A DNA stretch of 64,000 nucleotides, from contig JAVJTC010000038.1 of NCBI GenBank assembly GCA_040219085.1, forward strand, positions 16,199-80,198, written 5' to 3'. Below, piece after piece: positions 3,550-54,535 of the stretch. The notes below the pieces were generated by a model. The model was not told the origin of the DNA and ran no database searches. It saw only the letters and a program-made list of their open reading frames with translations. How positions within the stretch are numbered: the first letter of the stretch is position 1; each line of letters begins with the position of its first letter. This stretch comes from Acidimicrobiales bacterium (lineage in GTDB: Bacteria; Actinomycetota; Acidimicrobiia; Acidimicrobiales; JAVJTC01). The translations under genes and the position numbers were made by a program.

Positions 3550-3565
3550 GTTAGGTATACCTAAC
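3550..3565. promoter_or_regulatory. Perfect 16-bp palindrome GTTAGGTATACCTAAC, candidate metalloregulator operator
   Basis: AT-rich perfect palindrome 38 nt upstream of the iron SBP start (3512, -) and about 100 nt upstream of the divergent secreted-protein gene. The TTAGGT/ACCTAA arms recall DtxR/IdeR half sites. Confidence 0.5.
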
Positions 3566-3667
3566 TCTCCGCCGGGAGTGCAACATCGCAGTGATTCATT
3601 CCGAGTTCATTCGGAGTTTCCCTTCGGGTCCTAAGGTGCGGGTGTCCACGTCTCAGGAGGCCCCCTT

Positions 3668-7759: not shown

Positions 7760-8152
7760 GTGAACCGTGATCCCGAGGACCTGGTCCGCACCTTCTGGGG
7801 GAGGGTGTGGTTGCGCGGCGAGGTGGATCTGGTCGACGAGCTCCTCGCCGACCCCTACATCCGCCACTGGGTCGAGGGCTCCCAGTCGCTGCCTCGCGCC
7901 CAGTACCGCGACCGCATCGCCGACGCGCTCGACCGGTCCAAGCCGGTCAGCGTCAACATCGACGCGCTCGACGTGGCCGGCGATCACGTCTGGACGCGCA
8001 TCTCCAGCACTCGGGTCGCGGTCGCGACGCACCAGACGATGGCGGTCACCTGGATGCAACAGCACCGCATCGCCGACGGGCTGATCGCCGAGACGTGGAC
8101 CCTCTATGAGACGGGCCTGCAGTGGGCGTCGTCGCAGTGGGGTGACCTCTAG
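7760..8152 (+). CDS. SnoaL-like / NTF2-fold (ester cyclase-like) protein
   Basis: N-terminus DLVRTFWGRVWLRGEVDLVDELLADPYIRH is typical of the SnoaL-like family. GTG at 7760 follows GGAGGA with a 6-nt spacer. Confidence 0.65.
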   Translation: MNRDPEDLVRTFWGRVWLRGEVDLVDELLADPYIRHWVEGSQSLPRAQYRDRIADALDRSKPVSVNIDALDVAGDHVWTRISSTRVAVATHQTMAVTWMQQHRIADGLIAETWTLYETGLQWASSQWGDL

Positions 8153-9903: not shown

Positions 9904-10979
9904 GCTCTGGCTCCGTGGGTCGCCCGGGTCACTTCGTCGAGTAGGGCGTCGATCAGCGCGGCCGTGGCGGGGAGGTCGCGCGGCGGCCTGACCTCGTAAC
10001 AGGGGACGTTCTGTGCGAGCCGGGTGATGAAGCGCATCGAGGCGTCGTGTTCGTAGGGCGTCTGCGCGATCGTCGACGGCGCTGCGGCCATGACCGCGGC
10101 GATCGGAGACGTAGGGGCGTGGCCGGGAGGCTGCCCGGAGCGTGGGAGTGACACTACGGCGATGGCACGCACCGCCATCTCCGTGGCGAAGGCAGAGGAC
10201 CGCGCGGCGTGGAGTTCGTGGATTGCTGTGAGGTTGGACACAGTGGTGCGCCGGGGCGCGCCCTCGAGGAGAGCGTCGGCGCGCACCGCCGCGTCGAGTC
10301 GGGTCTTCACGACCCCGTAGATGGGGCGCGCGACGTGAGTTCCGTCCTCGTCGGGGGCGACGTGGGTGTAGTCGTCCCCGCATGTCGCCATCCCTGCGGC
10401 CACGCCGGCGAGCGTGGTTGTCGACTTGCCCGCCCCGGAGTTGCCGAGAAGCAGCACGGCGCCGCGCTCGTCGCCCACACAGCCGGCATGGACCATCGCG
10501 TGGCCGAGCGAGGTGGAGAGCCAGTGGATGTGCATCCGGAACGGTTGCGACGATTCCCATTCCGGTAGTTCGCCGGCGGCGGCGACGAACCCGCTGCGGC
10601 CGTCGAGCGACATCGCCGTGATCAGCCCGTGGTGGCCGTCCCACACGAGGCGGTGCCGGCTGGCCTGGATCGACTGGCGCAGGGACCGTCCGGGCTGCGC
10701 CCAGGCGGGGTCGGGCGGATCCACCAGAGACGCGAGATGCTCGACGGTGGTCGCGTGGACGGTCATGGAGACGTGTGCGCCCGCGCCGCTCGCCGGCAGT
10801 AGCGAACGTAGTGGAGGCCCCCAGGGCGACGCGTGGTGCACGAACATCGTCAGGTCGTAGGGGCCGGGGCGCCACGTCGCCTGGTTCCAGCCCCGTTCGG
10901 CTTCGAGGCGGGCCGTGGCGGCGTCGATCCACCCGCCGAGGGGGCCGCCGCCGGTCAGCTGCCGGGCGCCTTGGGCCAT
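9900..10979 (-). CDS. HPr kinase/phosphorylase-like P-loop protein (HprK-related kinase)
   Basis: VHAGCVGDERGAVLLLGNSGAGKSTTTLAG matches the HprK C-terminal-domain Walker A context. 359 aa. The ATG overlaps the PqqD-like gene end by 25 nt. Confidence 0.75.
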   Translation of the reverse strand: MAQGARQLTGGGPLGGWIDAATARLEAERGWNQATWRPGPYDLTMFVHHASPWGPPLRSLLPASGAGAHVSMTVHATTVEHLASLVDPPDPAWAQPGRSLRQSIQASRHRLVWDGHHGLITAMSLDGRSGFVAAAGELPEWESSQPFRMHIHWLSTSLGHAMVHAGCVGDERGAVLLLGNSGAGKSTTTLAGVAAGMATCGDDYTHVAPDEDGTHVARPIYGVVKTRLDAAVRADALLEGAPRRTTVSNLTAIHELHAARSSAFATEMAVRAIAVVSLPRSGQPPGHAPTSPIAAVMAAAPSTIAQTPYEHDASMRFITRLAQNVPCYEVRPPRDLPATAALIDALLDEVTRATHGARA

Positions 10980-19104: not shown

Positions 19105-19863
19105 TCAGTCGACGTGACGCCAGGGGAGTGGTACGTCCATGAGGTGTCGGTACTCCTCTTCGAGGAAGGCCCGGAAGTTGGCCACGTGGGTCCGCATCAG
19201 CTCGGCTGCCAAGTCCGGATCCGACGCCAGGATCGCGGTCGTGATCTGGTCGTGGATGTCGCAGGCCTGGGCGCGTTCGGCGAGGGGGTAGTGAACGCCG
19301 AGGGCGCTTCCATCTGTCATGCCGTGCAGAGATGAGACGAGGAATGCGAACAACATGTTCTGTGAGCTGGTCGCGACGAGTTCGTGCCAGCGTTCGTTCT
19401 CGGCGAGGAAGGCGCCCGGATCGGCGTGGACGTCGCGGATCGCTTCGACGGACTGCTGCAACTGGACCCGTTGCTCATCGGTTGCGTTGAGAGCGGCCAG
19501 TGCCGCGGAGTGTGGTTCGATCGCTTCGCGCACCTCGACGACTGCTCGAAACGGTGCATGATTCACGTGCAGCAGCAGCGTGATGGTGCTGCCGAGGTAC
19601 TGGCCGCCCGGCTCGGTCACGACCGGGCCGCCGCCGGGCCCGGGCTTGAGCCGAATGATCCCCTGGAGCTCGAGATAGCGCAGGGCTTCTCGCAGCGTGG
19701 GGCGTCCCACAGCGTAGGTCTCGATCATCTCCCGTTCCGGTGGGAGGTGATCACCGACGGAGTAGCCCCCGGACGTGATGAACTCTACGATCCGCTCCGC
19801 CACGAGGATCGCCGTCTTCTTCGGTCGTTCGAGGCCTTGGCGGGGTCCCGCCGTCTCGGTCAC
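19105..19863 (-). CDS. GntR family transcriptional regulator (FadR/FCD subfamily)
   Basis: wHTH LPPEREMIETYAVGRPTLREALRYLELQGIIRLKPG followed by a helical FCD-like domain. Confidence 0.85.
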   Translation of the reverse strand: MTETAGPRQGLERPKKTAILVAERIVEFITSGGYSVGDHLPPEREMIETYAVGRPTLREALRYLELQGIIRLKPGPGGGPVVTEPGGQYLGSTITLLLHVNHAPFRAVVEVREAIEPHSAALAALNATDEQRVQLQQSVEAIRDVHADPGAFLAENERWHELVATSSQNMLFAFLVSSLHGMTDGSALGVHYPLAERAQACDIHDQITTAILASDPDLAAELMRTHVANFRAFLEEEYRHLMDVPLPWRHVD

Positions 19864-19911: not shown

Positions 19912-20970
19912 TCAGGGCATGTAGGCATCGGCGACGATGGTATGCAGTTCGTCGAGTGCGTCGGCACCTCGTGGTCGGTGTCCTCGCTCGATCTCGTGGA
20001 CGATCTCGACCACCTTCTCGTTGACGGGAACCGGGATCCCGTGGTGACGCGCCTTCTCGACGACGACCCCGTTGAGGTAGTCGATCTCGGTGCGCCGTTC
20101 CTTGCGGAGATCCTGAAGCAGCGAGGGGAGGTTCTCGCGTGCTCCGGCCCGGCTCTCTCCGAGAGCGTGAAGTGTCGTGGAGACCTCATCCCATGCGCCC
20201 GTCGTCGAATCGGCGGCGTCCATCAGCAGTCGGTGGCTGATGGACTTCAGTACCGGCGTCGGTGCTTGACCCTCGGCCTCGGCCACACGAGCGACCTCGT
20301 GGCCCAGAGCGACGATGCAGTCGACGGACCGAGGCTCCGTCCACAGGTGCAGCGTGGTCAGGTCGGCGAGGCCGCCGACGGCGTTGGACATCACGTTCAG
20401 GGTGAACTTTCCCCACAGCTCCGCCCAGATGTCGTCGGTCGCCTCAGTGGGCCCGAGCGGGTTGAACAGCTCGGCGAGTTGATCCGGGCGCTCGCGGGAC
20501 GAGCCGGGAGAGAGCTCTCCGAAGATGAGCGACGTCCACTCGTCGCCGCTGGTTCGGCGCGGTTTACCGGGATGGAACAGCTCCACAGCCATCGGGACCA
20601 CACAGCCGACCACCTGTGACCCGAACTGGTCGATCATCGCCGGTTCGTGGAGTCCGTTCTGGGCGGAGATGAGAATTCCACCGGGGCGCAGCCTGCTCGC
20701 GGCGAACGGGGCCGCCCAGACCGAGTCGTAGCCCTTGACGGCGACCACGGCGACGTCGAACTCTCCTGCCGGGGCATCGTCGAGGTGGCCGATGCGAGGT
20801 CGCACGTCGAAGCGCTCACTGACCGACTCCATGTGGAAGCCGTCGTCCTGGCTCTGCCAGATGTGTTGTGACCACCGGTCGACGCCGAGTATGTCGCGGT
20901 CTCCGCGTGTCATGTACCCCAGAATCGTGGAACCGATCGCTCCGCATCCCACTATGACGATCTTGGTCAT
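19912..20970 (-). CDS. Ketopantoate reductase (ApbA/PanE) family oxidoreductase
   Basis: N-terminal Rossmann MTKIVIVGCGAIGS. The C-terminal EIDYLNGVVVEKARHHGIPVPVNE is typical of the family. Confidence 0.75.
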   Translation of the reverse strand: MTKIVIVGCGAIGSTILGYMTRGDRDILGVDRWSQHIWQSQDDGFHMESVSERFDVRPRIGHLDDAPAGEFDVAVVAVKGYDSVWAAPFAASRLRPGGILISAQNGLHEPAMIDQFGSQVVGCVVPMAVELFHPGKPRRTSGDEWTSLIFGELSPGSSRERPDQLAELFNPLGPTEATDDIWAELWGKFTLNVMSNAVGGLADLTTLHLWTEPRSVDCIVALGHEVARVAEAEGQAPTPVLKSISHRLLMDAADSTTGAWDEVSTTLHALGESRAGARENLPSLLQDLRKERRTEIDYLNGVVVEKARHHGIPVPVNEKVVEIVHEIERGHRPRGADALDELHTIVADAYMP

Positions 20971-30646: not shown

Positions 30647-31413
30647 GCGTGGTCCCCCGTGAGATTCGTAGCGATCGAGATCGGAAGGTCGAGGTGGCCG
30701 AGGACCGGGTGGGTCAAGCGGGCGGCGGTGGCCGTGTCACCCAGTCGGATGGGCGTTTCGGTTCCGAGCTGCACGAAGGGCGTGGCCGTCGCGGGCGGCG
30801 GGAGCGTTCCCGCCATGATTGCGTCCTTGACGAGCGCCAGGTACTCGGCGGCGGTGTCCGGGTGGGGTGCGGGCATCGGGTGTTCTTCCTGTGTGTCCCG
30901 GCCCGTGACGACGAGTACCCCGTCGCTGTCCGTGGTGTCGACGTCGACGGGTGGGCCGACCATCACATCGCCGAGGAGGCATGCATCGGCGACCAGTTGG
31001 CCTGCGGACAGCGTCCCCCAGTCGTCGGTGATCCGTGAGCGCGGTAAGTCCAATGAGAGATGCCAGGTTCGGATCAGCGCCGGGGTGGAGGGTTCGTCGA
31101 TGCGGAAGTCGACGGTGACCGCGAACTCCGCCTCGACGATCCGGGGTGCGACGGCGGGGGTCGCGTCCGGTGCGGTCAGGGCCTTCTCCACGACGACACC
31201 GACGACCGGTCCGTCGATCCCGAGCCTCCCACGGGCACGTTCGCTGCTCGCGACGATGCGATATCCGACCACCGGCGAGTCGAGGGCACCGATCACGGCC
31301 GCCTGTATGGCGAAGCCGTCCGCGAGCGAGAGTTCTGGAACGACGACGGATGCAGTCTCGTCAGCCCATGCCGCAGCGAGTGCGCGTCCAACGGCGTCGA
31401 GATCCGGCCTCAT
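30643..31413 (-). CDS. 2-keto-4-pentenoate hydratase-like (MhpD/HpcG-type) FAH-superfamily protein
   Basis: LSLADGFAIQAAVIGALDSPVVGYRIV resembles the hydratase/decarboxylase family N-terminus. The start is uncertain: ATG at 31413, 31458 or 31464. Confidence 0.6.
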   Translation of the reverse strand: MRPDLDAVGRALAAAWADETASVVVPELSLADGFAIQAAVIGALDSPVVGYRIVASSERARGRLGIDGPVVGVVVEKALTAPDATPAVAPRIVEAEFAVTVDFRIDEPSTPALIRTWHLSLDLPRSRITDDWGTLSAGQLVADACLLGDVMVGPPVDVDTTDSDGVLVVTGRDTQEEHPMPAPHPDTAAEYLALVKDAIMAGTLPPPATATPFVQLGTETPIRLGDTATAARLTHPVLGHLDLPISIATNLTGDHA

Positions 31414-31573
31414 GTCGTCGCCCCCCCGGGCCTCCCCTGTGACACTGGTGAAAACCATATACATGGATTCGGGGAGGGGCAAGGGGGTCTCGCCGATCTG
31501 ACCCGATTGCGCCGCATGCCGTCCTCGTCTCTGATGCGTCGGGGTTTCCGTCGTCCCGTCGGAGCGAGCAGTG

Positions 31574-31613
31574 CGGCCCGCCTCGGATCGATCGAGTCGT
31601 CCGAGGCGGGCCG
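31574..31613 (-). terminator. Strong GC hairpin in the 270-nt spacer between the SDR genes and the hydratase operon (terminator or leader attenuator)
   Basis: The arms CGGCCCGCCTCGGA / TCCGAGGCGGGCCG form a 14-bp perfect stem. The 12-nt loop contains TCGATCGA. Confidence 0.55.
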
Positions 31614-31705
31614 TGGTCGCCGTGTCAGGGGGATGACCGTCGACGACCCGCTCGACGAGCGCTACTCGGTGAGTCACGCTACCGGTACCGGGTGACCCCG
31701 TCAAG

Positions 31706-31726
31706 ATCTTACGTAAGACGTAAGAT
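31706..31726. promoter_or_regulatory. Operator-like inverted repeat, site A: ATCTTACG-TAAGA-CGTAAGAT
   Basis: Perfect 8+5+8 AT-rich palindrome in GC-rich DNA. Related sites occur at 37876, 43442 and 52791. Confidence 0.6.
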
Positions 31727-31736
31727 TAGGACCACA

Positions 31737-32570
31737 TCAGACGCCGGCTGTCGCACCCATGTCGATCGGCAATGCGATCCCCGTCACGTACCGCGCCTCG
31801 TCGGAGGCGAGGAAGAGCACGGCGTTGGATATGTCGACCGACTCGACCCATGGAAGCGGCATGGCGTTGATGGACGCGAAGACCTCAGTGGCGTCTTCGA
31901 GAGTGGGGTTCTCCAGGTCGGGCCGCATCCGGCGGAACGTGGCCTCGTTGTTGATCATCGGCGTCAGCACGTTCGTCGGGTGGACGCTGTTCACCCTGAT
32001 CATCTCTGGCGCAAGCTCGACGGCTAGTGACTTCATGAGGCCGACGACTGCATGTTTCGTGGTCACGTAGTGCGAACAGCCCGGGTAGCCGCGGAGGCCG
32101 CCGACGGAACTGGTGATGACGATCGAACCGCCCTCGCCCTGCTTCCGGAGGATGGGGAGCGCTGCGGAGGCGGTGTTCCACACCCCATCGATGTTGATCT
32201 CCATCATCTCCGACCACTGTGTCGGCGTGATCTCGCCGGCTTCTCCGATGGCGGCGATCCCCGCGTTCGCCGAGACGATGTCGAGCCGTCCGAGTTGCGC
32301 TGCACCGTCTGCAGCGGCTTCGGCGAGTCCGTCGCGGTCCCGCACGTCGACCACGTGGGACACCATTCGACGACCCAGCTCGGTCACGAGCCGTTCGGTC
32401 TCTTCGAGGTCGGCGACGGTCGGTCCGGGATAGGTGATGGTCGGAATGTCGGCGCAGACGTCGACGCCGATGATGTCAGCGCCCTCCTGCGCGAGGCGGA
32501 TGGCGTGTGAGCGCCCCTGCCCCCGCGCTGCCCCTGTGATCAGAGCGACCTTTCCTTCGACCCGTCCCAT
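31737..32570 (-). CDS. SDR family oxidoreductase of the mycofactocin-associated (carveol dehydrogenase-like) subtype
   Basis: MGRVEGKVALITGAARGQGRSHAIRLAQEGADIIGVDVCADIPTITYPGPTVADLEETERLV shows the GAARGQGRSHA plus insertion signature of that subfamily. Catalytic YxxxK (HYVTTK). SD GAAGGGAG. Confidence 0.8.
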   Translation of the reverse strand: MGRVEGKVALITGAARGQGRSHAIRLAQEGADIIGVDVCADIPTITYPGPTVADLEETERLVTELGRRMVSHVVDVRDRDGLAEAAADGAAQLGRLDIVSANAGIAAIGEAGEITPTQWSEMMEINIDGVWNTASAALPILRKQGEGGSIVITSSVGGLRGYPGCSHYVTTKHAVVGLMKSLAVELAPEMIRVNSVHPTNVLTPMINNEATFRRMRPDLENPTLEDATEVFASINAMPLPWVESVDISNAVLFLASDEARYVTGIALPIDMGATAGV

Positions 32571-32740
32571 TCGAACACTCCCTTCGTGTGGCGCGTGAGC
32601 CGCGCAGCTCTCTATGCCGTGACTGGGCGGTTGCGACGAGGTTCCTCGACCAGCCCGCTTGCGACCTCGGGTCGTGCACGCTACTCGCTGCGGTCGAGCG
32701 GGGTTGAGGAGGGGCTGGCGAGCGTTCTGGGTGGGAGCGG

Positions 32741-33514
32741 TCAGCCCGCGGCGCCGCCCCCGTCGACGAGATGTGCGCTGCCCGTCATGTAGGACGCCTC
32801 GTCCGAGCACAGGAAAGCGACGAGGGCAGCGATCTCCTCCACGTCCGCGTAACGGCCCAGCGGCACGATCTCGTTGACCATTTCCCTGAATGTGTTCGGC
32901 TCGTCGGGTCTCATGCCGGCCTCGATCCTGTCCATCATCTTGGTGTTGACGCACCCGGGGCATACGGCATTGACGCGGATTCCTGCAGGTGCGAGCTCGA
33001 GTGCCGCCGTCTTGGTCATGCCGATCACGGCGTGCTTGCTTGCGCAGTAGGCGATCATCGACGGTGCGGCCTGGACGCCTGCGCCTGAGGCCGTGTTGAG
33101 GATCGCGCCACCGCCCCGTGAGCTCATCGGGCCTGCCACGTGTCGCATGCCGAGCCAGACCCCCTTCACGTTGACGTCGAGGACGTCGTCGAAGGTCTCC
33201 TCGGGGTAGTTCTCGAGGCTGGCGATCACGCCCTCGATCCCCGCGTTGTTGAAGAGCACGTCGACCCCGCCGAACGTCCGGACGGCCGCATCGACATAGT
33301 TTGCGACGTCGCTGGACTTCGTCACGTCGGCCGTCACGGCCACAGCGGCGCCGCCTGCGGTCTCGATGTGAGCCGCCGTTTCCTCTGCGCCCGCGCCGCT
33401 CGAGTCGACGGCGACGACCGAGGCACCTTCCTCTGCGAAACGAAGGCAGGCTGCCCTCCCGATTCCGCCTGCAGCCCCGGTCACGATGACGACCTTGTCC
33501 TCGAATCTGTTCAA
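32741..33514 (-). CDS. SDR family oxidoreductase (classical)
   Basis: TTG at 33514 follows GAGGAG and gives MNRFEDKVVIVTGAAGGIGRA. Has NNAG and YCASKHAV. Confidence 0.8.
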   Translation of the reverse strand: MNRFEDKVVIVTGAAGGIGRAACLRFAEEGASVVAVDSSGAGAEETAAHIETAGGAAVAVTADVTKSSDVANYVDAAVRTFGGVDVLFNNAGIEGVIASLENYPEETFDDVLDVNVKGVWLGMRHVAGPMSSRGGGAILNTASGAGVQAAPSMIAYCASKHAVIGMTKTAALELAPAGIRVNAVCPGCVNTKMMDRIEAGMRPDEPNTFREMVNEIVPLGRYADVEEIAALVAFLCSDEASYMTGSAHLVDGGGAAG

Positions 33515-33732
33515 CTCACGACTCCTCGCTCGAATTGGCTGCCGCCCGACGCTGGGCGTCAGACTCCACCGGGAGTTCATCATCCAAAGTCGTCCCGGTC
33601 GCGCACCCACCGGTGCGGAGCCGATCACCCCGCTCGGTGGTGACACCGATCGGATGGCCACCAGTCACTTCTGAAGCCCTGGCCCGTCGAGCCCTACTGT
33701 CTGGGGGGCAGTTGTCGATCGGAAGGCGCCCA

Positions 33733-35739: not shown

Positions 35740-36282
35740 TCACCCTTCGTCGACGAGCGCTCGAACCAGCTCGTCGAGCGCCGCGTCGGCGATCTCGACC
35801 ATCTCGACGTCGGTACGGTCCTGGATCGGGTGCCTGACGATGACGCGGGCGGGATCGACCCCGAGCGCCGCACACTGGTGGCGGGCCGCTTCGACGAACT
35901 CGGCGGACGCAACGAAGACCCCCGGGATGCCTCGGGACTCGAGGTCGGCGATGTCGTGCACACTGCACGACGTACACGATCCTCAGTCGGCGAGGGCCTC
36001 TATGACTGCGTCGCAGGTGGTCGAGATCTCGTGGCGCAGGTCGACCGGGGCGGGCTTGGTGAAGGTGGGCTTCGCAAACCGGCGGACCGTCGCTCCACGC
36101 GCGGTCAAGCCGCTGGCGATCCCGTCGAGGAAGATGTCGCCGCGCGGCTTGGTGATGTCGAGGAGCGCAATGGTCGCGCCTTCGATACGCGCGAGTCGCC
36201 GGGCGCGGGGCCGGTGGACCGGCTCGCGTTCGGAGGTCGGGTCGACGAGCAGCGTCGGGTTTCTGCGGGGCGTGTCTGTCAT
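35740..36282 (-). CDS. UGSC-motif (seleno)protein candidate, in-frame UGA at 35985..35983 read as Sec
   Basis: ORFs 35983..36282 and 35740..35961 share one frame. The junction reads EALAD-TGA-GSCTSCSVHDIADL. A SECIS-like hairpin lies 11 nt downstream. The ATG at 36282 overlaps the upstream stop (ATGA). Confidence 0.75.
35953..35971 (-). promoter_or_regulatory. SECIS-like stem-loop (Sec recoding signal)
   Basis: mRNA GUCGUGCA-GUG-UGCACGAC forms a perfect 8-bp stem with G first in the apical loop. The stem starts 11 nt after the UGA. Confidence 0.65.
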
Positions 36283-37730: not shown

Positions 37731-37875
37731 CGTCTCACAGTGCGTGCCTCGCTCTTCATGGCTCTCGACTCTAGGCTGCCCTCCGGAGACGCGCTGAGAG
37801 AGTTGACGTCGGACGACAGGTATCGAACTGGCTGTGGCCCGCGTGTCCCTTGACAGTCCAAGGTTGCGTAGGCCA

Positions 37876-37897
37876 ATCTTGACGTGCTGCGTTAGAT
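37876..37897. promoter_or_regulatory. Operator-like inverted repeat, site B: ATCTTGACG-TGCTG-CGTTAGAT
   Basis: Sits exactly mid-way in the divergent intergenic region, 146 nt from the start at 37730 (-) and 146 nt from the start at 38043 (+). Confidence 0.55.
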
Positions 37898-38042
37898 CTT
37901 GGGGAAATCATCACTGCGCTCGCTCAGTGCGGTCCCTGGCTCCGGCACTGCAATGCAGGGGGCGGGTGTGCGAAGCGGTTGCCGTGCGGTGGGTCTCGCG
38001 GGTGTTTCGGAGCAACTGGTAGCGCGACCAAGGGGGATTCGG

Positions 38043-42185: not shown

Positions 42186-42284
42186 GGGCCCGCGTCCGGG
42201 GGCGGCGTCAGTGAGCTCCGGTCCGCTACCGGAGATCGGGTCCTTCCGGCCGATCCCGGATGGGTGCCTCGTGCCCGCGTCCCG

Positions 42285-42310
42285 CCGACGCGGTGACCGA
42301 CTCGCGTCGG
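42285..42310 (+). terminator. Hairpin between the amidohydrolase and cyclase genes
   Basis: 8-bp stem CCGACGCG / CGCGTCGG with a 10-nt loop. No U-tract. Confidence 0.3.
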
Positions 42311-42380
42311 GGAGCAGCGCTCCGGGCCACGACAGTTCAACCGTTGTCGAACACCAAGCTCATAGACAGAAGGAGTCATC

Positions 42381-43400: not shown

Positions 43401-43441
43401 CCGCCCGCCGCCCGCTTGTCCGACCCGCATGTGGATGATTA

Positions 43442-43463
43442 CTCTTGACGTCAAGCGTCAGGT
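43442..43463. promoter_or_regulatory. Operator-like inverted repeat, site C: CTCTTGACG-TCAAG-CGTCAGGT (contains the 12-bp palindrome CTTGACGTCAAG)
   Basis: About 95 nt upstream of the E1 alpha start at 43559. Confidence 0.5.
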
Positions 43464-43558
43464 TGGTGCACCCGGGGGTTCGGGTGCCGGCGCAGGGGGT
43501 CCGGCGGTTTCCGGCCAGCTCGCACGTCGACGAGTTGCAGGACTACTGGGAAGACGAC

Positions 43559-48669: not shown

Positions 48670-49137
48670 TTATGCTGTGCCGACGGCCTCATTGCTGGTC
48701 TGCGTTGATCCAGCGGCTCTGAGCAGTACGTTTATGGTCGTCGTGTCGGCGACGGCTGATCCGTCGACGAGCTTTGCCAGGATTCGGAGTATGTCGATCT
48801 TGCTCTCGAGGTCGGCGATTCGTTCCTCGATGAGAGATGCTGCCGTTGCGCGTGCATCGCCATCGAGCTCCCGCCCACGTCCAACTGGGGCGAGGATCCG
48901 TACCTCTTCGAGCGGGAAATCCAGCTGCTTGAGGGTCAGGGCCCATCGGAGATACGTCACGTATTCGAGGGGGTACTTCCGGGTGCCCTTCTCCGACCTC
49001 GGAGGCTCGGGCAGGATCCCGAGTTCCTCGTAGTACCGGATCGTCCGGCTGCTGACGCCTGCGCGACGGGCTACTTCGCCAATGTTGAGGAGTTCGCCCT
49101 CGAGGTCCTGGTCGGCAGCGGTACGAGCACTAGACAT
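48670..49137 (-). CDS. MerR family transcriptional regulator
   Basis: LNIGEVARRAGVSSRTIRYYEELGILPEP is the MerR HTH, followed by a coiled-coil. Confidence 0.85.
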   Translation of the reverse strand: MSSARTAADQDLEGELLNIGEVARRAGVSSRTIRYYEELGILPEPPRSEKGTRKYPLEYVTYLRWALTLKQLDFPLEEVRILAPVGRGRELDGDARATAASLIEERIADLESKIDILRILAKLVDGSAVADTTTINVLLRAAGSTQTSNEAVGTA

Positions 49138-49312
49138 CGGCTTTCCTTCTCGTCACCACTGACCAACCCTCGTTCATGCTAGCGGGGCCCCCGGTGCGCC
49201 GGCGACTGAGAAGCCTCGAGCGGCCAGAGCCAGTATGGCCTTCGCGTGCCGAGGCCGTCGCCATGATGTCGCAGTTTGCGAGTCGAGTGGGAGGTCCCGT
49301 CCTGACCCCCGG

Positions 49313-52617: not shown

Positions 52618-52790
52618 CAAGGCGCCCTTTCGCTCGAGGCCTACTCGACGTGAGTACTTACTCTTTAACGTTAGATCCAGCCCCTTAGCACTACCAGAGG
52701 GGCGGTTCCCAGGCAACCGTCCGCAGCCGGACAGTTGCAGATCGCGGTTGTCCTGGGCCGGACGGCGAGCCGCCGGGCGCGTGCTTGCAT

Positions 52791-52813
52791 AGATTGAACG
52801 TCCAACGTAAGAT
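52791..52813. promoter_or_regulatory. Operator-like inverted repeat, site D: AGATTGAACG-TCCAA-CGTAAGAT, overlapping a putative promoter
   Basis: TTGCAT (52785-52790), then 17 nt, then TAAGAT (52808-52813). The repeat fills the spacer and the -10. About 95 nt upstream of the BVMO start. A weaker related site lies at 52656-52676. Confidence 0.55.
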
Positions 52814-52909
52814 CGTGTAGGTTGAGCTGAACGAGCCGCAGTGGCTTCGTCGCCGAGGGGGAAGTGCCGGCGACCAGCGTCGCCGGCAACGAAACGAGGG
52901 GGTTCGAGA

Positions 52910-54535
52910 ATGTCGCAGGGCAGTTCTGACACTGACGTCGACGCGGTCGTGATCGGCGCCGGCTTCGGAGGCCTGTACATGCTGTACAAGCTCCGCGAGC
53001 TCGGGCTGTCGACCCAGGTGTTCGAGGCGGGTGATGGTGTCGGGGGGACCTGGTACTGGAATCGCTACCCGGGGGCACGCTGCGACGTAGAGAGTCTGGC
53101 GTACTCGTATTCGTTCGACCCCGAGCTCGAGCAGGACTGGGAGTGGTCGGAGCGCTACCCGGCCCAGCCCGAGATCGAGAAGTACCTCAACCATGTGGCG
53201 GATCGCTACGACCTGCGTCGTGACATAGCTCTCGAGACGAGGGTGACGGCCGCGACCTTCGACGAGGACACGACCTCGTGGACCATCGAGACCGACACCG
53301 GTCGGTCCGTGACGTGTCGCTGGTTGATCACGGCGGTGGGCTGTCTGTCCAAGCCGAAGGAAATCGACATCGAGGGCAAGGGGTCGTTCGCGGGGCCGAC
53401 CTATCACACGCCGTCATGGCCGAAGGACGGGGTGGACTTCTCGGGCAAGCGGGTGGCTGTCATCGGAACGGGATCGACCGGTATCCAGGTGATCCCGGAG
53501 ATCGCGAAGCAGGCGGAACACCTCACCGTGTTCCAGCGGACGCCAAACTTCTCGCTCCCGGCGCAGAATCGAGACCTCACCGGCGACGAGATCGAGGAGT
53601 TCAAGGCGGACTACCGCCACTTCCGCGAAGAACAGCGTGCGTCGGCCTACGGCGTGCCGGCGCCGCCACCGGAACCATCCGCGCTGGCGGTGGCCGCCGA
53701 GGAACGCAACCGCAAGTATCAACAGGCCTGGGACAAGGGGGGATTCGCCGAGTTCTTCCCGTACGCCGACCTGCTCACAGACATTGAGGCGAACGAGACG
53801 GTGGCGCAGTTCGTCCGAGACAAGATCGCCGGGATCGTCGATGACCCGGAACTGGCCGCCAAGCTGGCGCCAACCGACTACGCGTTCGGTACGAAGCGAC
53901 CGTGCCTGGACACCAGGTACTTCGAGACGTACAACCGCGACAACGTCACGCTCGTGGACCTGCGGGAGACTCCTCTCGAGCGCATAACCGGGAAGGGCAT
54001 CGAGACCTCTGACCGGTCGTACGAGGTCGACGCGATCGTCTTCGCCACGGGCTTCGACGCCATGGTCGGAGCGCTGAACGCGATCGACATCCGTGGCCGC
54101 GGCGGTGCGTTGTTGCGCGACGAGTGGAAGAACGGTCCCGTCACCTATCTCGGGTTGTCCGTCGCCGGCTTCCCGAACATGTTCACGATCACCGGCCCAC
54201 TGAGTCCTTCAGTGTTCTCGAACATGATCGTGTCCATCGAGCAGCACGTCGAGTGGATCGCCGACTGTGTCGCCTACGTCGACAAGGCCGGCGAGGCGGG
54301 CATCGAGGCCACCTCCACTGCTCAGGACGACTGGGTCAGCCACGTGTCCGAACTGGCCGACATGACTCTGTTCCCACAGACAGATTCGTGGTACGTGGGA
54401 GCCAACGTCCCCGGCAAGCCTCGAGTGTTCATGCCCTATGTGGGAGGCGTCGGCTTCTACCGGGAGACGTGCGACGAGATCGTTCGAGACGACTACCGGG
54501 GTTTCGACCTGATCAGCGCGCCGCAGGAAGCATGA
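52910..54535 (+). CDS. Baeyer-Villiger monooxygenase (cyclohexanone monooxygenase type, class B flavoprotein)
   Basis: SD GAGGGGG. DAVVIGAGFGGLYMLYKL, GGTWYWNRYPGARCDVES and the second Rossmann VAVIGTGSTG. Confidence 0.9.
   Translation: MSQGSSDTDVDAVVIGAGFGGLYMLYKLRELGLSTQVFEAGDGVGGTWYWNRYPGARCDVESLAYSYSFDPELEQDWEWSERYPAQPEIEKYLNHVADRYDLRRDIALETRVTAATFDEDTTSWTIETDTGRSVTCRWLITAVGCLSKPKEIDIEGKGSFAGPTYHTPSWPKDGVDFSGKRVAVIGTGSTGIQVIPEIAKQAEHLTVFQRTPNFSLPAQNRDLTGDEIEEFKADYRHFREEQRASAYGVPAPPPEPSALAVAAEERNRKYQQAWDKGGFAEFFPYADLLTDIEANETVAQFVRDKIAGIVDDPELAAKLAPTDYAFGTKRPCLDTRYFETYNRDNVTLVDLRETPLERITGKGIETSDRSYEVDAIVFATGFDAMVGALNAIDIRGRGGALLRDEWKNGPVTYLGLSVAGFPNMFTITGPLSPSVFSNMIVSIEQHVEWIADCVAYVDKAGEAGIEATSTAQDDWVSHVSELADMTLFPQTDSWYVGANVPGKPRVFMPYVGGVGFYRETCDEIVRDDYRGFDLISAPQEA

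Follow-up and report, generated by a model that had tools for sequence, protein, structure and literature searches.

An AT-rich palindrome at the 3' end of a short-chain dehydrogenase (SDR) gene, together with similar sequences in its neighborhood, raises the question of whether a set of catabolic operons in an Acidimicrobiales genome answers to one regulator, and which protein that regulator might be. Acidimicrobiia are abundant and mostly uncultured, and to our knowledge almost nothing is known about gene regulation in this class. We analyzed a 64,000-nt stretch of the genome, called the window below. A sequence-only reading of this DNA had claimed that one palindromic motif marks several operons of a catabolic island and points to a dimeric regulator, and our results support this view.

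A recurrent palindrome in a catabolic island

The window has a G+C content of 67%, and 8% of it is non-coding. Pfam annotation outlines a catabolic island (Table 1) that encodes seven amidohydrolase_2 proteins, two sets of TPP-dependent E1 alpha/beta subunits plus one E2, several SDRs, a fumarylacetoacetate-hydrolase-family protein, a cyclase, a Baeyer-Villiger-type monooxygenase, an ADP-forming acyl-CoA synthetase, a thiolase-like/enoyl-CoA hydratase fusion, two nitronate monooxygenases and Liv-type ABC transporters. The substrates of the island pathway are probably alicyclic or branched compounds. Only two regulators are visible in the window, a GntR/FCD protein and a MerR-family protein. 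We also observed a perfect 16-bp AT-rich palindrome, GTTAGGTATACCTAAC, at 3550-3565, between the divergent genes of a solute-binding protein and an unknown 471-aa protein. It is followed by a direct repeat, TTCATTCCGAG/TTCATTCGGAG (3597-3618), and is a candidate operator unrelated to the island motif.

The island motif is a 21-bp AT-rich palindrome, TTgACGT-N3-ACGTcAA, that recurs before five or six operons of the island. The consensus refined on the window and the Acidimicrobiia loci described below reads a-y-y-T-k-ACGT-t-n-a-ACGT-m-A-r-r-t. Sites A, B, C and D, which the sequence-only reading had listed, were all found in the sequence as described there, and site B2 is an additional one, absent from that list. 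Two weak sites had also been proposed. The one at 33548-33564 scored 4.2-4.6 bits, which is background, and the one at 52656-52676 (site E) is borderline, with a single good half-site and a score of 9.8 bits, against 4.6 bits or less for intergenic background. The statement that all sites lie upstream of operons is overstated, since the island intergenic regions at 32551-32740, 33501-33699, 35801-35982, 42186-42380 and 49138-49312 carry no site.

Table 1. Positions of the island, the motif sites and neighboring features in the window, and of motif sites near MerR genes in related loci (numbered within each locus)
Feature	Position	Strand	Description
Catabolic island	~25.5 kb to 63 kb		Pfam annotation
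GntR/FCD protein	19105-19863	-	Pfam
Proximal promoter-like element	31454-31482	-	TTGCCC (31477-31482), 17 nt, TATGGT (31454-31459); AT-rich patch CCATGTATATGGTTT
GC-rich hairpin	31575-31612	-	stem ~17 bp, no T tract; ends a 147-nt structured stretch
Site A	31706-31726	-	perfect 8+5+8 palindrome ATCTTACGTAAGACGTAAGAT; 35.0 bits; best consensus match
Site B2	37800-37822	-	GAGTTGACGTCGGACGACAGGTA; 12.4 bits (independent matrix)
Site B	37876-37898	+	25.5 bits; upstream of amidohydrolase_3 operon
Site C	43442-43464	+	24.0 bits; upstream of E1-alpha/E1-beta/SDR operon (ATG 43560)
MerR-family regulator	48670-49137	-	155 aa, no cysteine; Pfam MerR/MerR_1/MerR-DNA-bind
Site E	52655-52677	-	9.8 bits (independent matrix); borderline, single good half-site; upstream of acyl-CoA synthetase - nitronate monooxygenase - MerR operon
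Site D	about 52791-52814	+	29.5 bits; operon ATG at 52911
L001 site	64		upstream of 62%-identical MerR orthologue
L039 site	2183		then MerR at 2265
L049 site	1597		then CoA-transferase A/B + MerR operon
L063 site	7688		then MerR at 7775; second MerR at 9989
L089 site	232		upstream of MerR
L129 site	7889		upstream of MerR
L170 site	2241		upstream of second MerR
L176 site	707		upstream of MerR

The divergent regions B2/B and E/D hold two sites each, one per promoter. Site B2 faces the divergent gene for a 483-aa unknown protein, which is followed by UGSC and SDR genes. Site B has a promoter-like context made up of TTGACA (37850-37855), an 18/19-nt spacer and CAATCT/AATCTT abutting its left arm, and site C a similar one with TTGTCC (43416-43421), 18 nt and TACTCT (43440-43445), again abutting the left arm. 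Site D overlaps a promoter-like TTGCAT (52785-52790)-N17-TAAGAT (52808-52813) and precedes an operon for the Baeyer-Villiger monooxygenase, an ABC transporter and the thiolase-like/enoyl-CoA hydratase. Site E lies about 130 nt upstream of a minus-strand operon that encodes the ADP-forming acyl-CoA synthetase, a nitronate monooxygenase, the MerR-family protein, an amidohydrolase_2 and an alcohol dehydrogenase.

Perfect 8+5+8 palindromes are not rare as such, with seven in the window against a mean of 2.5 in shuffles, but one with AT-rich arms is present where 0.03 is expected. The bare core ACG-N5-CGT was not enriched in the window (36 copies, 5 of them non-coding, with 8% of the window being non-coding). 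The extended form TNACG-N5-CGTNA gave five matches against 1.1 expected, and none of 100 shuffles reached five. A symmetric 23-nt matrix was built from sites A to D. With leave-one-out matrices made from any three of these, the omitted site ranked 2nd to 5th of 63,978 positions. The six best matches of the A-D matrix in the window were A, D, B, C and then 37800 and 52655, all of them non-coding; a comparison of intergenic with coding matches, proposed in the sequence-only reading, thus came out in favor of the motif. Best scores in the 23 intergenic regions were bimodal: four regions reached 20 bits or more, and none of the remaining 19 exceeded 4.8 bits. The single coding-region match of the refined matrix (20387-20409, 16.3 bits, GACATCACGTTCAGGGTGAACTT) falls within the gene of a ketopantoate-reductase-like protein, located upstream of the GntR gene, and is probably spurious.

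The motif in other genomes and the genes beside it

A scan of a genome collection with an alignment of the MerR protein yielded 80 loci, 1.34 Mb in total. When the matrix made from window sites A-D only was run over this DNA, the top five matches all fell in L039, L049 and L063, which are the sole Acidimicrobiia loci among the 80 and cover 32 kb together, and all five were intergenic. The G+C content of these three loci equals that of the Streptosporangiaceae-type loci (72%), in which no such matches occurred. With the refined matrix, 17 sites of at least 18 bits were found in 100 kb of Acidimicrobiia loci (training sites counted in), whereas 1.36 Mb of control loci held no site that reached 18 bits and three that reached 15 bits. 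A metagenome scan and exact-protein look-ups added further site-bearing loci, namely L089, L129, L176 and the L170-L174 family. The ACGT-N3-ACGT dyad symmetry is kept in the independent loci found, and an enumeration of spaced word pairs that left the window out returned CGT-N3-ACG and ACG-N4-ACG as the top pairs, in a set of loci some of which were not chosen blind to the motif. Recurrence in related genomes, the other check put forward at the outset, was thereby confirmed.

The related loci resemble the window in layout. Two sites per divergent region also occur in L039 (319/371 and 6132/6184) and L063 (7620/7688). L001, a 3.8-kb contig, carries an orthologue of the island MerR (62% identity, the one close relative) beside an amidohydrolase_2 orthologue (77% identity), together with two intergenic matches to the motif. 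The genes behind sites in related loci further include enoyl-CoA hydratases, luciferase-like monooxygenases, hydantoinase/acetone-carboxylase-like genes, a MaoC dehydratase and a Liv-type binding protein. The amidohydrolase_2 next to the MerR gene was also tried as an anchor for orthologous islands and was rejected, its homologues L003-L008 being neither syntenic nor equipped with sites. Loci L170-L174 have two MerR paralogues (144 and 201 aa) in a cluster with AtuA, AtuA-ferredoxin, MaoC, acyl-CoA dehydrogenase and Liv-type ABC transporter genes, and one motif site there lies 8 nt before the MaoC start codon, overlapping its ribosome-binding site.

The MerR-family protein of the island matches PF00376 (5e-16), PF13411 and PF09278, and its solved relatives are MerR, CueR and CadR, the best being MerR 4ua1 (E = 5e-14). 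Its DNA-binding segment is GVSSRTIRYYEELGILPEPPRSEKGTRKY, and only about 30 residues follow its coiled coil. In at least seven independent loci the motif lies directly upstream of a MerR homologue or of an operon that contains one (Table 1), and MerR is the only regulator family that recurs in more than one motif locus. The earlier view that no regulator in the window matches the motif is not supported, because the motif adjoins homologues of the island MerR in those loci. The window scan found no site near the GntR gene, the closest being 12 kb away. The remaining 43 kb of the window carry no site, and neither do L007/L008, two Acidimicrobiales loci that lack this MerR. The 175 nt immediately before the window's own MerR gene are likewise free of sites. 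Since MerR homology served to retrieve the loci, some of the proximity to MerR follows from the selection itself; the case for MerR comes from the sites directly upstream of MerR genes and from their absence in that other DNA.

The motif is real, intergenic, conserved across Acidimicrobiia loci and situated next to MerR homologues. The product of the island's own MerR gene is most likely its binder, being the best candidate by gene neighborhood, and we consider it fairly probable that the motif is the binding site of this MerR dimer acting as repressor of a local regulon.

More distant homologues carry other boxes. Weaker metagenome matches, retrieved via the segment RTIRYYE[ED], gave 36 low-GC loci (L133-L168) with MerR proteins 31-50% identical. 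In 22 of the 36, the 170 nt before the MerR gene contain a TTACGT half-site, which is a 23-fold enrichment over the rest of the loci. The box resembles TTACGTAAAGGTCA and typically lies 5-12 nt downstream of a complete sigma-70-like promoter. Most of these boxes are ACGT-N2-AGGT, one base shorter between the half-sites than the island motif; the pattern ACGT-N3-A[CG]GT was rejected for this clade, as it matched only 3 of the 36 loci, the usual spacing being N2. Pfam annotation of four such loci placed acyl-CoA dehydrogenase, thiolase, thioesterase and membrane HdrD-like Fe-S oxidoreductase genes near the MerR gene. In loci of this group (e.g. L136, L137, L141, L155, L167), one or two TTACGTAAAGGT(C/G)A boxes stand just after TTGACA-N17-TAnnnT promoters, and some boxes overlap the ribosome-binding site. 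A full-text literature search for the distant-clade box TTACGTAAAGGT returned nothing relevant.

The motif is absent, except in L089, L091 and L129, from 44 soil-metagenome homologues (47-77% identical to the L039 MerR, with the RTIRYYE segment) and 77 Streptosporangiaceae-type loci, which share a different upstream box, CTACTATCCGTGAT. Identity of the recognition segment failed as a predictor of the motif for these two groups; since they have the same segment and lack the motif, similarity of the DNA-binding segment alone does not predict it. In many of the loci L013-L032, L069 and L093-L132, the box CTACTATCCGTGAT sits inside a palindrome GTAATCGCTA-N11-TAGCGATTAC. In soil actinobacteria (L113, L122, L124, L125, L086, L060), TGACGT-N3-CCGTCA-like palindromes recur about 170-260 nt upstream of some MerR homologues. 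A conserved divergent gene may include them in the coding portion for its N terminus, and their conservation may then reflect coding sequence.

Promoter geometry, mode of action and the position of site A

Each of 20 sites was oriented to the nearest downstream gene; transcription starts are predicted ones. A TAnnnT hexamer begins 11-13 nt upstream of the site center in 8 of the 20 and on the mirror side in none (Fisher p = 0.0016); the other 12 sites have no recognizable adjoining -10. At B, C, L001b, L049 and L039c, TTGnnn lies about 37 nt upstream of the center, that is, 17-19 nt beyond the TAnnnT position. The dyad thus spans about -7 to +14 relative to the predicted start, a position that matches the layout in the distant MerR clade. 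A -10 that abuts the upstream arm places the site over the transcription start, suggesting repression and not the classical activation from within the promoter spacer. A sigma-70 promoter inside a single site was also considered and rejected, because TTGACG and TAAGAT are merely 7-9 nt apart there and cannot form one promoter.

We infer MerR as the binder, repression as its mode and the nature of the ligand. The island MerR dimer would bind the dyad of about 21 bp immediately downstream of, or overlapping, the -10 hexamer of its targets, and the bound dimer would cover the transcription start and so repress. A pathway intermediate, plausibly a CoA thioester or a ketone/lactone, would release it. 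Five or six transcription units would be the likely targets, those after B2, B, C, E, D and possibly A, and the unit controlled by E would include the regulator gene itself.

Several other accounts of the sites have to be weighed against a MerR repressor. They could be bound by no protein at all and reflect a chance likeness of AT-rich intergenic patches, promoter or initial-transcribed elements, or weak RNA hairpins. Intergenic DNA is indeed relatively AT-rich in a 67% G+C genome, the outer arms look like -10 hexamers (TAAGAT) and the bare core is not enriched. This account is nevertheless very hard to credit, given the leave-one-out ranks of 2nd to 5th, the gap down to 4.8 bits or less in the 19 other intergenic regions, the transfer to independent genomes with the ACGT-N3-ACGT symmetry conserved, and the recovery of CGT-N3-ACG and ACG-N4-ACG by word-pair enumeration without the window; besides, a stem of 8 bp that is rich in AT is too weak to terminate transcription, and no terminator was called. 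If the operator is real, its binder could still be the GntR/FCD protein or a regulator outside the window, with the MerR genes as targets. The generic operator pattern of the GntR family has a GT-N3-AC center, which the motif shares along with palindromic flanks. Moreover, close MerR homologues of other actinobacteria carry a different upstream box, the window's MerR gene has no site directly upstream, and the window shows 64 kb of a 99-kb source contig. We regard such a binder as unlikely. No GntR or other shared regulator family appears among the annotated genes of L039, L049, L063 (reading frames partly covered) and L170-L177, and the 12 kb between the GntR gene and the nearest site also speaks against it. 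Sites directly precede MerR genes in at least six loci, for which autoregulation is the simpler account, and the distant MerR clade likewise has TTACGT boxes before its own gene.

MerR might also bind as a classical activator that sits in an over-long -35/-10 spacer and twists the DNA on ligand binding. MerR-family proteins typically work in this way, and the closest solved relatives are MerR, CueR and CadR; the left arm is often TTGACG, which is -35-like, and D and L063c would accommodate a promoter whose -35 is the left arm, followed by an 18-nt spacer and TAGGTT. However, only 2 of the 20 sites allow this arrangement, with a spacer of 18 nt rather than 19-20, and inspection of the sequences at B, C, L049 and L001b revealed no -10 at 17-21 nt downstream of the TTGACG arm. 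The eight sites with a -10 against the upstream arm, the distant-clade boxes downstream of complete promoters with 17-nt spacers, and a protein that has no cysteine and a short tail after the coiled coil are likewise at odds with activation, which we judge quite improbable.

Site A differs from the other sites in its surroundings. The sequence-only reading had called its placement odd, and it does lie about 11 nt after the SDR stop codon (31737-31739); the next gene begins at 31413, as annotated in the NCBI record, or at 31464. On the minus strand a -10-like TAATCT (31723-31728) with a poor -35 precedes the site. Downstream of it, a 147-nt stretch (31570-31716, minus strand) with three hairpins is unusually structured (z = -3.56), and the leaders downstream of B, B2, C, D and E showed no unusually strong folding. 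A consensus scan called neither a terminator nor a promoter at A, and codon-position G+C did not point to a coding region between site A and the gene that follows. In Rfam, the site A region matched nothing at E <= 1 other than a chance miRNA, and the hairpin that ends the structured stretch is neither a dispersed repeat nor present a second time in the window. It may be the SDR terminator, part of a leader, or the end of a small RNA.

A single upstream region orthologous to that of the gene after A was found, in L169 (55% protein identity), and it keeps neither site A nor the hairpin. Across sites A to D, it was the only orthologous promoter found. What L169 does keep is CCCCCTTGCCC-N17/18-TATGGT, which corresponds to the proximal promoter-like element and is the only conserved part of the intergenic region 31413-31736. 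The element probably serves as the actual proximal promoter of the operon whose first genes encode a hypothetical protein and the fumarylacetoacetate-hydrolase-family protein, and it lies about 230 nt beyond site A. The -10-like hexamer next to A suggests that a promoter situated where the SDR gene ends reads into a structured leader. Site A may be the operator of such an extra distal promoter, the operator of a short structured RNA, or a site within the 3' untranslated part of the SDR transcript, ahead of that gene's terminator.

Two wider readings strike us as possible but doubtful. In one, an uncharacterized clade of MerR proteins with the RTIRYYE[ED] segment, extending from Acidimicrobiia to low-GC anaerobes, may use TTACGT-type half-sites to repress CoA-ester catabolism at the transcription start. 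In the other, site A may gate the promoter, at the 3' end of the SDR gene, of a highly structured RNA of about 140 nt, which ends at the 31575-31612 hairpin and serves as a small RNA or attenuating leader under the same regulator.

Significance and relation to known systems

The motif is enriched in intergenic over coding DNA and conserved in related genomes, as is expected of a transcription-factor regulon. It is a conserved operator motif of a conventional local regulon, newly described here, in a poorly studied lineage, and the regulon is most likely repressed by a MerR-family protein, judging from site positions and gene neighbors. An operator with a candidate regulator gives a handle on which genes form one catabolic pathway, and the pair of regulator and DNA site could be used for biosensor work. 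The island protein is also a further example of a MerR-family member whose probable mode is repression at the transcription start.

Classical regulators such as MerR, CueR and SoxR share the fold family of the island protein (Pfam, 4ua1) and, like it, would act as a dimer on a dyad of about 20 bp. They differ in that the dyad of a classical activator is centered in a 19-20 bp spacer, which is not the case in the predicted promoters of the island, and in that the island protein has no metal-binding cysteines and a short C-terminal region. The lack of cysteine, as seen in an alignment, and the short C-terminal region indicate that the island MerR is not a metal sensor. Its NCBIfam scores are likewise below the cut-offs for CueR (63 bits vs 147) and MerR (60 vs 151).

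The closest system in Actinobacteria is HspR-HAIR, in which a MerR-family repressor binds an inverted repeat at promoters. HAIR is CTTGAGT-N7-ACTCAAG, and its outer CTTGA...TCAAG arms are common to CTTGACGT-N3-ACGTCAAG. The inner half-sites differ, the island dyad is 2 bp shorter, and the island targets are catabolic operons and not chaperone genes. The island MerR is not a member of HspR, since it scores 25.6 bits with NF047375 (NCBIfam) against a cut-off of 105.

In function, the closest system is LiuR, a regulator of branched-chain amino acid/acyl-CoA catabolism in Proteobacteria. The resemblance is functional only; the sequence of the LiuR box was not found in the accessible literature. 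LiuR belongs to another phylum, and the island has the Baeyer-Villiger monooxygenase, amidohydrolase_2 proteins, E1/E2 and an ADP-forming CoA ligase instead of liu/ivd genes. Both regulators are encoded within or next to the catabolic operons that they control, or would control, and the LiuR targets (acyl-CoA dehydrogenase, enoyl-CoA hydratase, thiolase and CoA transferase) are of the classes that adjoin the relatives of the island MerR. The LiuR regulon was defined by comparative genomics through a palindromic 'ILV box' (PMC7238569). LiuR itself has been described as a MerR-family protein that acts as a repressor and not as an activator (PMC3223726), and the repressor position of the island dyad matches that published description (PMC3223726).
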